From Escherichia phage vB_EcoM_EP32a, in the sequence record OR544954: a DNA stretch of 64,000 nt, one strand, 5' to 3'. This document shows, one piece after another, positions 19,203 through 23,519 of this stretch. Position 1 is the stretch's first letter; each line of letters opens with the position of its first letter. The translations under genes and the position numbers were made by a program. The notes beneath the pieces were generated by a model. The model ran no database searches. It was not told the origin of the DNA and saw only the letters and a program-made list of their open reading frames with translations.

Positions 19203-19565
19203 ATGAAAGCATATCAAATTCTTGAAGGTGCACATAAAGGCACTATTTATTTTGAAGACGGTACTCAAGCCAGGATTATTGTCTCTAAGACTTTTAAAGA
19301 AGACGCTATTGTAGACCCGGAAATTTTCTACGGTTTGAATGCCCGTGAAATTGAAATTGAACATCAACCTAAAGTTAAAATTGAAGGTGGACAACATCTG
19401 AACGTTAACGTTCTGCGTCGTGAAACTCTAGAAGATGCAGTTAAGCATCCAGAAAAATATCCGCAGCTGACCATCCGTGTATCTGGTTATGCAGTTCGCT
19501 TTAACTCTCTGACTCCGGAACAGCAGCGTGACGTTATCGCTCGCACCTTTACTGAGAGTCTATAA
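19203..19565 (+). CDS. autonomous glycyl radical cofactor (GrcA/YfiD-like)
   Basis: C-terminal ...[59 protein letters not shown] carries the RVSGY glycyl-radical motif and matches, as I recall it, E. coli GrcA. Confidence 0.8.
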
Positions 19566-19789
19566 TGGCTAAATTGATTATAGAAGGGTCTGAAGATGTT
19601 TTAAAATGTTTTGCCGCCTGGTTTAGTTGCTCAGGCGAGCAATCATTCACTGAAGCATTTAGAATGGGTGATATTACTGGAAACTATCCGACAACTGATA
19701 TCACTGTACGTGGATATGGTATTAATGAGCCTATCCAATTGGTCGAATATGACCTTGCCACCGATGAGGAAATTCCTTATGTCGATTGA
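19565..19789 (+). CDS. hypothetical protein
   Basis: 74-aa ORF, ATGG-coupled to the GrcA-like gene. Confidence 0.4.
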   Translation: MAKLIIEGSEDVLKCFAAWFSCSGEQSFTEAFRMGDITGNYPTTDITVRGYGINEPIQLVEYDLATDEEIPYVD

Positions 19790-19912
19790 AGACATCAAAG
19801 GCTACAAGCCGCATACCGATGATAAAATCAGTAAAGTGAACGCTATTAAAGATGCAGAAGTTCGTGTCGTGCAGTATTTCGACCTGAGGAAAAATACTAA
19901 TGGCTAGAGTAG

Positions 19913-19962
19913 TTTACTTCTCCTCTAGTTGTGTTACTATAGACCTGTCAACTAGAGGAGAA
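19913..19962 (+). promoter_or_regulatory. early promoter cassette with 12-bp inverted repeat
   Basis: GTTTACttctcctctagttgtgTTACTATagacctgtcaactagaggag; near-identical copy at 60757-60806. Confidence 0.5.
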
Positions 19963-19968
19963 ATCAAA

Positions 19969-20427
19969 ATGACTATCAATTCAGACGTTTTTATCCGTCG
20001 TAATAAACTCCGTCGAATCTTTGAAACGGAGTTCCGCAAAATAAATGCCGGTATAAAAGATGCTGCAAAGTCTCTTGGACTACCAGGCTTTCATATCAAG
20101 TATTCTCAACATCTCTTAGATCGTGCCATCCAGAGAGAAATAGATGAGAATTACGTTTTTGAATTATTTCATAAAGTAAAAAATCACGTTAAAGAAGTTG
20201 CAGAATTTTTATCAATGCCGGCACGTCCAGATGTTGATGAAGATTTTGTCGAAGGTGTCGAGTATCGTCCAGGCCGTTTAGAAATAACTGACGGAAATCT
20301 TTGGTTAGGACTTACAGTTTGTCGCGAAAATCCGACATTCAAAATGAAGACTCTTCAATGTAGAATGGCTATTATTAACAGTAAACGACTACCAGGAAAA
20401 GCTTCTAAAGCAGTGATTAAAATCTAG
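19969..20427 (+). CDS. regB: endoribonuclease RegB
   Basis: MTINSDVFIRRNKLRR...KYSQHLLDRAIQREIDE...GRLEITDGNLWLG...LQCRMAIINSKRLPGKASKAVIK; 152 aa (T4 RegB 153 aa). Confidence 0.8.
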   Translation: MTINSDVFIRRNKLRRIFETEFRKINAGIKDAAKSLGLPGFHIKYSQHLLDRAIQREIDENYVFELFHKVKNHVKEVAEFLSMPARPDVDEDFVEGVEYRPGRLEITDGNLWLGLTVCRENPTFKMKTLQCRMAIINSKRLPGKASKAVIKI

Positions 20428-20435
20428 AGGTAAAC

Positions 20436-20978
20436 ATGAGAAAAGCACTACTCGCTGGTCTATTTGCTCTTTCATTATCAGCACATAGCTCCGAGCATAC
20501 TTTTAGTAATGTCCAACTCGATAACTTGAATTATGCTTATCAGTTTGGGGAACAGTTTTCTAAGGACGGAAAATTTAAAACGCATGAAAATATGCATAAG
20601 AAAGGACTTGGATACATAATGGCCGCAATACTATGGCAAGAATCATCTGCCGGTATTAATCTTAAAGATAAGAAAGGTCACCATGCGTATGGAATGTTCC
20701 AAAATTATCTACCAACAATGAGGGCAAGAATTAACCAGCTTGGTTATAATATGACTGATGCCCAAATTAAGAAAATGCTATCTAAGCGGTCTAATTCAGC
20801 CAGATGGGCTTATATCGAATTTTCTTATTGGTTAAATATACATAACGGGGATATAAGAAAAGCTATATCCTCATATAATGCGGGATGGAAGACAAGTGCT
20901 GGAAGTAAATATGCTTCTGAAGTCCTAGAAAAGGCTAATTACCTTAAATCAAATAAACTACTGGAAATAAAAGAATGA
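20436..20978 (+). CDS. secreted lytic transglycosylase-like protein (vs.1-like)
   Basis: Signal peptide MRKALLAGLFALSLSAHS; SLT-domain motifs ILWQESSAG, AYGMFQ, YNAG. Confidence 0.7.
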   Translation: MRKALLAGLFALSLSAHSSEHTFSNVQLDNLNYAYQFGEQFSKDGKFKTHENMHKKGLGYIMAAILWQESSAGINLKDKKGHHAYGMFQNYLPTMRARINQLGYNMTDAQIKKMLSKRSNSARWAYIEFSYWLNIHNGDIRKAISSYNAGWKTSAGSKYASEVLEKANYLKSNKLLEIKE

Positions 20979-21322
20979 CCAAAATGTTGGCTTTAATAGT
21001 TAGCTTGGTTTCATTTAACGCTCTTGCTAATACTACATATACTGATGTAACGGAGTATACAAACAGAACGGCGTCTGATTATTGTGGTAAAAGTCAAGAG
21101 TGTAAAGTAGATTTTTCACAAAAATTGTTATACGCGTATAAAGACGGAGAAAAAGATGGGGCGTCTAGTAGGTTCAAGGCGTCTACCTTAATTAAAAGAT
21201 ACTATAAAAAATGGCAAATATTAGAATGCTCGGTGGCGGAACCTAAAGATAAGGCAGCATGCAATTCTATGGTGGACCGTCTAGTTGACTCTTATAATAG
21301 AGGACTTGCAGCAAGTGATTAA
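20975..21322 (+). CDS. small secreted protein
   Basis: Signal peptide MTKMLALIVSLVSFNALA; four Cys in mature part. Confidence 0.5.
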   Translation: MTKMLALIVSLVSFNALANTTYTDVTEYTNRTASDYCGKSQECKVDFSQKLLYAYKDGEKDGASSRFKASTLIKRYYKKWQILECSVAEPKDKAACNSMVDRLVDSYNRGLAASD

Positions 21323-21782
21323 AAACTACATCAAGGGCGATATTGTCGCCCTGTTTTCTAAAGGTAATAATATTGCTCATGGGTGTAATTGTTTTCATAC
21401 AATGGGCGCCGGTGTAGCAGGCCAATTAGCAAAGGCTTATCCAAAAATTTTAGAAGCCGATAAACTTCAAACCGAATTCGGAGACGAGTCTAAACTCGGG
21501 TCTTATTCGGTTTATGAAAAATATTTTAAGACCCATAAAGCTTATTGCTTTAATCTTTATACGCAGTTTGAGCCTGGACCTAATTTTGAGTACTCTGCTT
21601 TAATGAATTGTATAATAGAATTAAATGAATTCGGAAAGAATAAGATAACAAAGCCTGTAATTTATATGCCAAGAATTGGTGCAGGTATCGGTGGTGGAAA
21701 CTGGGATGTCATCGAAGAGATTTTAGATACGTATTCCACTAAACTAGAAATTGTGATTGTTGATTGGGAACCATTATTATGA
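21315..21782 (+). CDS. macro domain protein (ADP-ribose binding / processing)
   Basis: GDIVALFSKGNNIAHGCNC...GAGVAGQL and PRIGAGIGGGNWDVI fit macrodomain signatures; start inferred at GTG 21315 after GAGGA (the ORF has no ATG before the domain). Confidence 0.6.
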   Translation: MIKNYIKGDIVALFSKGNNIAHGCNCFHTMGAGVAGQLAKAYPKILEADKLQTEFGDESKLGSYSVYEKYFKTHKAYCFNLYTQFEPGPNFEYSALMNCIIELNEFGKNKITKPVIYMPRIGAGIGGGNWDVIEEILDTYSTKLEIVIVDWEPLL

Positions 21783-21991
21783 ATATACATTATCCACATC
21801 CATATGACCCAAAGAATAAGGCAGTAATTATTCGTCAATGGGAACGCATTTGCCGTACCAAATGTCCAATTAATAGTCTACATGATGTAGATAAAGACTA
21901 CATTGGAACATTCGTTGAATATACCTTTATTGATAAGAAAGGTCGTAAACAGCATGTAGAAGAATACTGCTTAAAGGTGACATGGTTATGA
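21779..21991 (+). CDS. hypothetical protein
   Basis: 70-aa ORF. Confidence 0.4.
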   Translation: MNIHYPHPYDPKNKAVIIRQWERICRTKCPINSLHDVDKDYIGTFVEYTFIDKKGRKQHVEEYCLKVTWL

Positions 21992-22194
21992 GTCAAACAA
22001 AAATTCTTACAGGTGCTAAATGCGAAAAATGCGAATGGCCTGTAGTTTTTGCTTTATGCAATGACGAAATGGCTTGTGATTTTGATTATTGGTGTTACTG
22101 TTCGAACAAAGGTTGTAGCAATCATAAAGGTGAAGGGTTTTACTCAGGATTTTACCCTTACCCGGATTTCGTTAAAGAAGGTGAACCTAAATGA
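21988..22194 (+). CDS. Cys-rich small protein (putative zinc-binding)
   Basis: CEKCEW...CNDEMACD...WCYCSNKGC. Confidence 0.45.
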   Translation: MSQTKILTGAKCEKCEWPVVFALCNDEMACDFDYWCYCSNKGCSNHKGEGFYSGFYPYPDFVKEGEPK

Positions 22195-22373
22195 AATTGA
22201 CTAAAGAAGAGAAAACTAAACTGTTCGAACTTATCCATGACCTATTGGACGAGCAAGCAGCCACCAATGCGTACGATGAATATGCTCCTTTAACAGATGA
22301 AGAATATCAAGCATTGATGGAATCATTTGACAGGAAAGAACAAGAACTCATTGACTACGTGAATTCACTATAA
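22191..22373 (+). CDS. hypothetical protein
   Basis: 60-aa acidic ORF, ATGA-coupled. Confidence 0.4.
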   Translation: MKLTKEEKTKLFELIHDLLDEQAATNAYDEYAPLTDEEYQALMESFDRKEQELIDYVNSL

Positions 22374-22382
22374 GGGACTCTT

Positions 22383-22964
22383 ATGGCTAGTTTAATTTTT
22401 ACATATGCCGCTATGAATGCTGGTAAGTCTGCTTCATTACTTACTGCCGCACATAACTATAAAGAACGTGGCATGGGTGTATTAGTTCTTAAACCGGCTA
22501 TTGATACTCGCGATTCAAAAGGTGAAATAGTCTCTCGTATTGGTATTCGTCAGGATGCCAATATAATTACAAAAGACATGGATATCTTTGAATTCTATAA
22601 ATGGGCTGCAGCACAAAAGGATATTCACTGTGTATTTGTTGACGAAGCTCAGTTCTTAACTACTGAAAAGGTGTATCAACTTAGTCGTATTGTTGACGTA
22701 TACAATGTGCCGGTAATGGCATATGGACTACGAACAGATTTTAAAGGTAATCTATTTGAAGGTTCTCAAGCATTAATGGCTATTGCCGATAAGCTTGTTG
22801 AACTTAAAGGTGTCTGTCATTGTGGTAAAAAGGCCACAATGGTAGCTAGAGTCACGGAAGACGGACTTCCAATTACAGATGGCAGCCAAATTGAAATTGG
22901 TGATACCGATAGATATGTGTCATTATGCCGGAAGCATTGGAATGATTTGACAGGGTTGTTATAA
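22383..22964 (+). CDS. tk: thymidine kinase
   Basis: P-loop MNAGKSASLL; zinc ribbon CHCGKKAT...CRKHW; 193 aa as in T4 Tk. Confidence 0.9.
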   Translation: MASLIFTYAAMNAGKSASLLTAAHNYKERGMGVLVLKPAIDTRDSKGEIVSRIGIRQDANIITKDMDIFEFYKWAAAQKDIHCVFVDEAQFLTTEKVYQLSRIVDVYNVPVMAYGLRTDFKGNLFEGSQALMAIADKLVELKGVCHCGKKATMVARVTEDGLPITDGSQIEIGDTDRYVSLCRKHWNDLTGLL

Positions 22965-22967
22965 ATA
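22960..22967 (+). promoter_or_regulatory. late promoter TATAAATA
   Basis: Exact octamer about 25 nt upstream of the ATG at 22992. Confidence 0.5.
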
Positions 22968-22991
22968 CTAATATCTAACCAAGAGGTATAT

Positions 22992-23204
22992 ATGCAGCAA
23001 TTAAACGAAAGACAACTTCGTAATCTTACTGTAACCCAATTGGATGAAATCCGAAGAGAATTAGGACATTCTATTTCTCATTTAAACGAGGATATCCGTC
23101 AAACTGGTTCTAAAGCTGATTATACACGCAAGCGCAAGCTGGAAAAATACCTCGCAGATGTTAAGGCCGTCCAAAGGCGAAAAATAAATACTGGCCAAAA
23201 TTAA
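22992..23204 (+). CDS. hypothetical protein
   Basis: 70-aa ORF after AAGAGG SD. Confidence 0.45.
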
Positions 23205-23216
23205 CAGGAGGCCTAT

Positions 23217-23519
23217 ATGGCCTTAAGAGCGATAGCTGTCATGGCGATGCTGGGGTTTTTTGCAGCAACAACTCCTATCGTTGGTACTGCATATATCGAC
23301 CCATATTTTGATAACTTTATGGAATCAGGGATTAAAAACGTATATACTTTGTTTGAAATTCAAAATGTTGAGAATTCTGAAAAATTCTATAAGTATATGG
23401 CAAAGCATTACAAAAATAGTCCCTGTGATGATGCATTTGAATGTCATGAACAAGGCATAAAAACCGCCAGACAATTTGCTGAGTTCATGAAAATAAAATT
23501 AGAGCCTACATCTATCTAA
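23217..23519 (+). CDS. rI: lysis inhibition regulator RI
   Basis: N-terminal signal-anchor MALRAIAVMAMLGFFAA; DPYFDNFMESGIKNVYTLFE...CDDAFEC recognisable as T4 RI; 100 aa (T4 97 aa); position next to tk. Confidence 0.75.
   Translation: MALRAIAVMAMLGFFAATTPIVGTAYIDPYFDNFMESGIKNVYTLFEIQNVENSEKFYKYMAKHYKNSPCDDAFECHEQGIKTARQFAEFMKIKLEPTSI

Follow-up and report, generated by a model that had tools for sequence, protein, structure and literature searches.

A Mosigvirus macrodomain orthologous to T4 Tk.4/AdfM, a probable eraser of DarT2 modification on phage DNA

Gene arrangement at the locus

The DNA analysed here, a 64,000-nucleotide stretch of Escherichia phage vB_EcoM_EP32a (OR544954; hereafter the window), originates from a Mosigvirus, an RB69-like T-even phage. 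Its plus strand carries, in order, regB, vs.1, vs, the macro ORF, tk.3, two small ORFs and tk (Table 1). The macro ORF runs to the TGA at 21780-21782 and encodes 155 aa. A preliminary description had claimed a macrodomain protein at exactly these coordinates, and all the motif strings that it quoted (KGDIVA, NIAHGCNC, MGAGVAGQL and MPRIGAGIGGGNWD) are found in the translation. Over the 2-kb piece around the macro ORF, identity reaches 98-99% with Mosigvirus genomes (phages AV110, mobillu and mar005P1) and 80-90% with several hundred other T-even records, among them T4, whose own gene stands at 81%. With overlaps of 8 nt with vs and 4 nt with tk.3, the gene fits tightly between its neighbours in the early vs-tk block. 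A promoter scan of 19500-23300 returned 11 sites against 13.2 expected from shuffled sequence; as this is no excess, no promoter is claimed.

Table 1. Positions of the macro gene, its signals, its conserved motifs and the neighbouring genes in the window
Feature	Position	Strand	Remarks
regB	19900-20427	+	
vs.1	20436-20978	+	
vs (valyl-tRNA synthetase modifier)	20975-21322	+	directly 5' of the macro gene, 8 nt overlap (GTGATTAA); PHROG 1256, 3.3e-35; relatives' annotations
Shine-Dalgarno GAGGA	21300-21304	+	10 nt 5' of the start codon; read from the sequence
Macrodomain gene, T4 tk.4/adfM ortholog	21315-21782	+	155 aa, stop codon included; Pfam Macro, PHROG 335, T4 Tk.4 identity, AF2
GTG start codon	21315-21317	+	within the last vs codons (GTGATTAA overlap); aligns with the T4 ATG
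Hairpin, then GTTTTCT	21334-21362	+	8 bp stem, 3 nt loop (AGGGCGAT/ATT/GTCGCCCT); macro codons 7-16; terminator scan
H22-G-C-N25-C motif	21378-21392	+	N25 is the conserved active-site Asn; H22, G23 and N25 invariant
MGAGVAG (residues 30-36), first Gly-rich (GxG) ADP-ribose phosphate-binding loop	21402-21422	+	G31 nearly invariant; G33 and A35 invariant
N80-L-Y-T-Q84 strand	21552-21566	+	Q84 at the position of the catalytic Lys of TARG1 (K84) and DarG (K80)
P-R-I-G-A-G-I-G-G-G-N-W, second Gly-rich loop	21669-21704	+	P119, I121, G122 and G124 invariant; W130 nearly so; G126 at TARG1 D125
tk.3 (DUF7202)	21779-21991	+	start overlaps the macro stop by 4 nt (ATGA); Pfam DUF7202, 3.8e-38; relatives' annotations
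tk	22383-22964	+	

The macro gene had also been described as lying downstream of a secreted transglycosylase. The SLT-like vs.1 does lie upstream and has a signal peptide, but it is two genes up, with vs in between, and its Pfam SLT match of 18.8 bits falls below the cut-off of 21.3.

Several annotations in this region deserve comment in their own right. In phage mobillu, vs.1 is named ‘endoribonuclease’, and in several records tk.3 is named ‘putative ABC transporter ATP-binding protein’; neither name is backed by family searches. The N-terminus of Vs resembles a signal peptide (MTKMLALIVSLVSFNALANT), an unexpected feature given that the enzyme it is said to modify is cytoplasmic, and vs is the most depleted T4 gene in minimal medium according to the HIDEN-SEQ preprint. 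Finally, regB is listed from the ATG at 19900 (175 aa), while the PHROG profile starts only at residue 24, around 19969, as do the genes annotated in relatives, giving a protein of ~152-153 aa as in T4.

As had been remarked, the macro ORF has no ATG ahead of the domain: none is in frame between the TAG at 21282-21284 and the domain, and the first, M30, lies at 21402. Two non-ATG candidates are available, TTG 21285 and GTG 21315. The GTG, proposed earlier on account of the GAGGA before it, holds, because T4 has an ATG at the aligned position with an in-frame TAG directly 5' of it; the same T4 stop and start codons exclude the TTG. The GAGGA is also present in T4, 10-11 nt 5' of the start, where an old T4 record annotates a ribosome binding site, and the same 468-nt CDS is annotated in the GenBank records of close relatives, most of which use the GTG. 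The record of phage NBG1 instead begins the gene, after a predicted terminator, at the ATG corresponding to 21402. Such a start would drop the first two strands together with the invariant HGCNC motif, and the loss of this motif marks the NBG1 gene model as wrong. Comparison with T4 gives a dS of 1.25 and a dN of 0.084 (dN/dS 0.067), which identifies the macro ORF as a coding sequence under strong purifying selection, rather than a chance ORF.

A GC-rich hairpin resembling an intrinsic terminator lies within the macro gene, just 3' of the vs stop codon. RNA folding of this region gives -19.1 kcal/mol (z -2.48), with the T-run pairing with the Shine-Dalgarno region in the minimum-energy fold. 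T4 and phage BW-1 also have the hairpin, and it is the element annotated as a terminator in the NBG1 record, where that annotation led to the truncated macro gene. It could serve in the attenuation of transcription arriving from vs, or in the gating of translation.

Orthology to T4 tk.4/adfM

The product of the macro ORF shares 85.2% amino acid identity, over 155 of 155 residues, with T4 ORF 60.5, which is Tk.4, and the gene sits between vs and tk.3, the same place that tk.4 occupies in T4. The macro ORF is the Mosigvirus ortholog of T4 tk.4/adfM, a known gene: near-identical proteins have been deposited in GenBank as macrodomain proteins and the T4 ortholog has been named and characterised genetically.

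A T4 transposon library grown on E. coli that expressed DarTG2 yielded one significant hit, tk.4, a gene that was dispensable when DarTG2 was lacking; a clean knock-out of tk.4 rendered T4 sensitive to DarTG2 (bioRxiv 10.1101/2025.11.20.689424, a preprint of November 2025). The evidence in that work is genetic, and removal of ADP-ribose from DNA by T4 AdfM is its proposal. The authors noted structural similarity to M. tuberculosis DarG and, as T4 needs tk.4 to resist the DNA-ADP-ribosylating DarTG2, named the gene adfM, for anti-DarT factor macrodomain (bioRxiv 10.1101/2025.11.20.689424). This requirement fits the earlier observation that T2 and T4 without the anti-DarTG1 factor AdfN are still resistant to DarTG2 (PMC11825919). 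Reversal of DarTG-type ADP-ribosylation defences, which the preliminary description had put forward as a possible role, has thus since been reported for the T4 ortholog by both screen and knock-out (bioRxiv 10.1101/2025.11.20.689424).

Macrodomain fold and family assignment

A Pfam search returned Macro (PF01661) at 27.6 bits, above the gathering cut-off of 22, with residues 22-136 covering model positions 2-117 of 118, and PHROG 335 matched at 8.7e-67. The AlphaFold (AF2) model, computed from an alignment of 71 homologues, has a pLDDT of 95.2 and a pTM of 0.90. Its alternating strands and helices form the three-layer α/β/α fold with a mixed central sheet that is typical of macrodomains, so that domain search and model agree on the macrodomain reading first made from the letters alone.

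Searched against the PDB with Foldseek, the model gave 137 matches at E <= 0.001, the best 50 of which comprise macrodomains and designed hydrolases built on a macrodomain scaffold. The order of these matches was TARG1, Poa1p, T. aquaticus DarG, BT1257, M. tuberculosis DarG and SCO6735, followed by viral macrodomains. A profile search of PDB sequences recovered the same proteins, namely BT1257 (4e-17), TARG1 (7e-17), SCO6735 (4e-14), Poa1p (8e-14) and M. tuberculosis DarG (6e-13). DarG was the only family matched in PADLOC and NCBIfam, and weakly (33 bits, 8.8e-9, and 32 bits, 7.5e-8, respectively). On the strength of the Pfam match, the model with its structural neighbours, the profile search and the weak DarG match, the product is a single-domain macrodomain of the TARG1/ALC1-like group; it is a relative of DarG and not a DarG member.

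Names given to relatives in GenBank vary, and include ‘macro domain protein’, ‘phosphatase’, ‘Poa1p_like’ and, in a Mosigvirus record, ‘Tk.4 conserved hypothetical protein’. The phosphatase (Poa1p-like) designation is that of the PHROG label and of several GenBank records.

Active site

Both Gly-rich loops, whose absence would have spoken against a macrodomain, are present and conserved in 150 homologues. The first aligns with MGAGIA of TARG1 and MGKGIA of DarG; the second, in which IGAGIGGG spans residues 121-128, aligns with PRIGCGLDRLQW of TARG1. Across 71 phage or metagenome and 80 bacterial homologues, H22, G23, N25, D49, N80, Y82 and Q84 never vary, and G33, G122 and G124 are likewise invariant.

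In hhalign and HMMER alignments Q84 stands opposite TARG1 K84, and G126 opposite D125. The catalytic dyad of TARG1 is therefore absent, and Lys/Asp catalysis of the TARG1 type is ruled out. Similarly, the residue that hhalign pairs with Q84 in the M. tuberculosis DarG macrodomain is the Lys of ‘FPTK’, the catalytic K80, and N25 pairs with N23 of PhiKZ gp104. The window protein shows the pattern of the SCO6735 type, with a Gln at the catalytic Lys position of DarG and TARG1 and without the Asp of the TARG1 dyad.

SCO6735 of Streptomyces coelicolor cleaves thymidine-linked ADP-ribose from DNA; it carries Gln85 at the catalytic Lys position of DarG and TARG1, the substitutions Q85A and Q85E abolish activity, and its authors propose a water-activated mechanism with no acid-base residue (PMC9411070). 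With an invariant Q84 at the Lys position, and the essential Gln85 of SCO6735 at the same position, an equivalence that is derived through the TARG1 and DarG alignments, the T4/window type appears to be, like SCO6735, an enzyme of the Gln type. By numbering, H22 and N25 would correspond to H24 and N27 of SCO6735.

The same residues bear on a different reading, in which the protein is a Poa1p-type small-molecule enzyme, an ADP-ribose-1''-phosphate phosphatase or O-acetyl-ADP-ribose deacetylase that clears NAD-derived by-products or signals, with the DarTG2 phenotype of T4 being secondary. In both sequence (1e-8) and fold (TM ~0.8), Poa1p ranks with the best matches, although identity in the structural comparison is only 24%, and it shares the H-x-C-N-C motif. 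The active-site residues of Poa1p are His23 and Ser30 (mutated in PDB 6LFS/6LFT); in the pairwise sequence alignment H22 stands by position at His23, T29 falls at Ser30, and Poa1p has Ser rather than Gln at the position of Q84. The ‘phosphatase’ label of PHROG 335, and the name O-acetyl-ADP-ribose deacetylase that JGI gives to homologues, point the same way but are transferred annotations, not tests. The stand-alone bacterial homologues and their varied neighbourhoods (see below) would suit a housekeeping enzyme. Against this, the only experimental phenotype of the ortholog is a specific sensitivity to DarTG2, a DNA-modifying toxin. In addition, no T-even phage is known to run the Tpt1/KptA pathway, from which Appr1p arises. 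We thus hold a Poa1p-type role to be quite improbable.

Protection might also be conferred without catalysis, by direct binding and inhibition of DarT2 or by the binding of ADP-ribose alone. When SCO6735, DarG and TARG1 are made catalytically dead, each of them inhibits DarT in vitro by interacting with it (PMC9411070), and the window protein does lack the TARG1 Lys/Asp dyad. However, the residues that are invariant across phages and bacteria without DarT (H22, N25, Q84 and both Gly loops) make up an active site and not a DarT-binding surface, and there is no counterpart of the C-terminal DarT-binding domain of DarG in a protein of 155 aa that covers positions 4-146 of 338 of the DarG model. 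As these active-site residues are common to bacteria without DarT, protection by binding alone is very unlikely.

Distribution among phages and bacteria

Of 50,697 phage records searched by tblastn, 2,844 contain relatives. These occur in T-even phages and their kin, with hosts in Escherichia, Klebsiella, Salmonella, Acinetobacter, Aeromonas and Vibrio, and also in other groups, Felixounavirus and Pseudomonas phages among them. A bacterial scan with one genome per species found 244 relatives, the best 80 of which, at 32-45% identity, belong to Rhodobacterales, Verrucomicrobiota, Desulfobacterales, Bacteroidota and others. These 80 closest homologues are mostly stand-alone ORFs of 150-190 codons.

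A tblastn search with a single P. aeruginosa DarT2 query, covering the window and the 80 bacterial loci (within 4 kb), found nothing significant for DarT (best E 2.9). Same-strand neighbours of the bacterial homologues are heterogeneous among the 25 commonest of 74 families, comprising PALP, Exo_endo_phos, EamA and others, with NADAR in three cases; as the survey covers these 25 families and one DarT2 query, rare DarT neighbours may be missed. Within this limited sensitivity, the stand-alone ORFs, the lack of a detectable DarT2 and the mixed neighbours give no sign of a lineage lifted from a DarTG operon, and an origin as an orphan antitoxin was rejected on these grounds.

Some features of the bacterial loci may be recorded separately. 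PALP and Exo_endo_phos are the commonest neighbour families overall (among the 25 commonest of 74). A gene for a NADAR domain, the other ADP-ribosyl-base hydrolase family, is the same-strand neighbour of three stand-alone homologues. The Rhodobacterales loci have a recurrent layout, with genes of ~325 aa upstream and ~400 aa downstream of the macro homologue.

In a further reading, the enzyme might chiefly serve proteins or RNA that have been ADP-ribosylated by the phage transferases Alt, ModA or ModB, or by other defence transferases of the host, with DNA as one activity among several. The fold relatives TARG1 and SCO6735 strip ADP-ribose from proteins as well as from DNA (PMC9411070), many host proteins are ADP-ribosylated by T-even phages (PMC9503650), and the subfamily is widespread in bacteria without a linked DarT. 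Yet in the T4 screen tk.4 was dispensable without DarTG2 and was the sole hit in its presence, no phenotype concerning protein or RNA has been reported, and the data can be explained with no wider substrate range; we therefore regard this as unlikely to be the main role, though it may be an additional activity.

Proposed function

Taken together, we consider it likely that the macro ORF, as the Mosigvirus ortholog of tk.4/adfM, specifies a small ADP-ribosylglycohydrolase made up of a single macrodomain, which undoes the DarT2 modification of phage DNA, probably by chemistry of the SCO6735 type. By analogy with the relatives SCO6735 (PMC9411070) and PhiKZ AdfM (PMC13309987), which cleave dT-ADPr DNA in vitro, the most likely mechanism would be the removal of ADP-ribose from DarT2-modified thymidines in phage DNA. 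We infer that the window allele would act as T4 tk.4 does, with dT-ADPr DNA as substrate and Gln-dependent catalysis.

In this model, the regB-vs-tk gene block would supply the enzyme early in infection. In a host carrying DarTG2, the DarT2 toxin would ADP-ribosylate thymidines in single-stranded phage DNA and so block replication. The two Gly-rich loops of the phage enzyme would bind the ADP-ribose, and the bond between the ribose and N3 of thymidine would be cleaved. Placement of the substrate and of an activated water would fall to the invariant Q84, along with H22 and N25, probably as in SCO6735, and a catalytic Lys such as that of DarG is probably not used. Cleavage would restore the DNA and leave the phage resistant to DarTG2.

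Two qualifications apply to the substrate. Activity on dT-ADPr is argued from analogy with SCO6735, at ~22% identity, as the family is without the catalytic Lys that DarG needs. Furthermore, as the bacterial members stand alone, with no neighbouring DarT, the subfamily may originally have acted on another substrate, and the targets of the phage enzyme may be additional or different ones.

On this reading the gene would be a counter-defence determinant that probably explains the DarTG2 insensitivity of this T-even group, with a bearing on host-range prediction and the choice of therapeutic phages. Mechanistically, the T4-type AdfM is not a copy of DarG but probably a Gln-type enzyme like SCO6735, set apart from its PhiKZ namesake, a distinction that can guide both mutagenesis (N25 and Q84) and nomenclature.

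Comparison with known macrodomains

The closest characterised system is T4 Tk.4. Both proteins have 155 aa, the same Shine-Dalgarno and start position, and all the invariant residues. They differ by 24 substitutions, including G127 in the second Gly loop (K127 in T4), and in the start codon, which is ATG in T4 and GTG in the window; T4 is a Tequatrovirus, whereas the window comes from a Mosigvirus.

Among the cellular macrodomains, human TARG1/OARD1 differs in its K84/D125 dyad, replaced by Q84/G126 here. Bacteroides BT1257 (2FG1) shares the N...Q motif, and yeast Poa1p shares H-x-C-N-C but is a phosphatase of a small molecule.

The DarG macrodomain (M. tuberculosis 5M3I, T. aquaticus 5M31/5M3E) has the same fold (Foldseek 1e-7 to 2e-7, TM ~0.75) and, for the T4-type AdfM through T4 tk.4, the same opponent, DarT2. 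Nevertheless, the window protein scores 32 bits against the DarG model (NCBIfam NF048014), for which the equivalog cut-off is 250, and covers positions 4-146 of 338 only. DarG has a C-terminal DarT-binding domain and a catalytic Lys, K80, in ‘FPTK’, whereas the 155-aa window protein has no such domain and a Gln at that position. The low score, the missing domain, the missing Lys and the absence of an adjacent darT in the single-query search rule out membership of DarG.

PhiKZ gp104, also named AdfM, is a phage-encoded single macrodomain that counters DarTG2 and has the active-site Asn in common with the window protein (N23 there, N25 here). It removes ADP-ribose from DarT2-modified ssDNA in vitro, and its N23A variant is less active (PMC13309987, Cell Rep 2026). 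It differs in being imported into the phage nucleus. The gp104 sequence (taken from PMC13309987) scores 137.8 bits against the DarG model, matches M. tuberculosis DarG at 9e-25 and carries FPTK, all of which identify it as a DarG-like protein of the Lys type. Aligned with the window protein by hhalign, it gives 1.8e-10 at 21% identity. Judged by their sequences, two separate macrodomain lineages carry the name AdfM, the Lys-type, DarG-like PhiKZ gp104 and the T4/window type, with its Gln and its 30-32 bits.

By contrast with DarG, the likeness to SCO6735 (PDB 5E3B) extends to the arrangement of the protein as well as its active site. Both are stand-alone, single-domain ALC1/TARG1-like macrodomains with a Gln at the Lys position, without the TARG1 Asp and without an adjacent DarT, although they share ~22% identity and SCO6735 is bacterial rather than viral. 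These comparisons lead us to suggest, tentatively and as a scenario somewhat short of probable, that T-even phages and chimalliviruses recruited two macrodomain lineages against the same toxin. PhiKZ AdfM would be an orphaned DarG macrodomain that keeps its catalytic Lys. For the T4/window AdfM, the source would be a subfamily of stand-alone macrodomains (HGCNC...NxYTQ), widespread in bacteria and unlinked to DarT, and the enzyme would work by a Lys-independent, Gln-dependent, SCO6735-like mechanism. If so, the HGCNC...NxYTQ subfamily, with members in ~2,800 phage genomes and many bacteria, would be a general eraser of base-linked ADP-ribose whose substrate range may exceed that of DarG.
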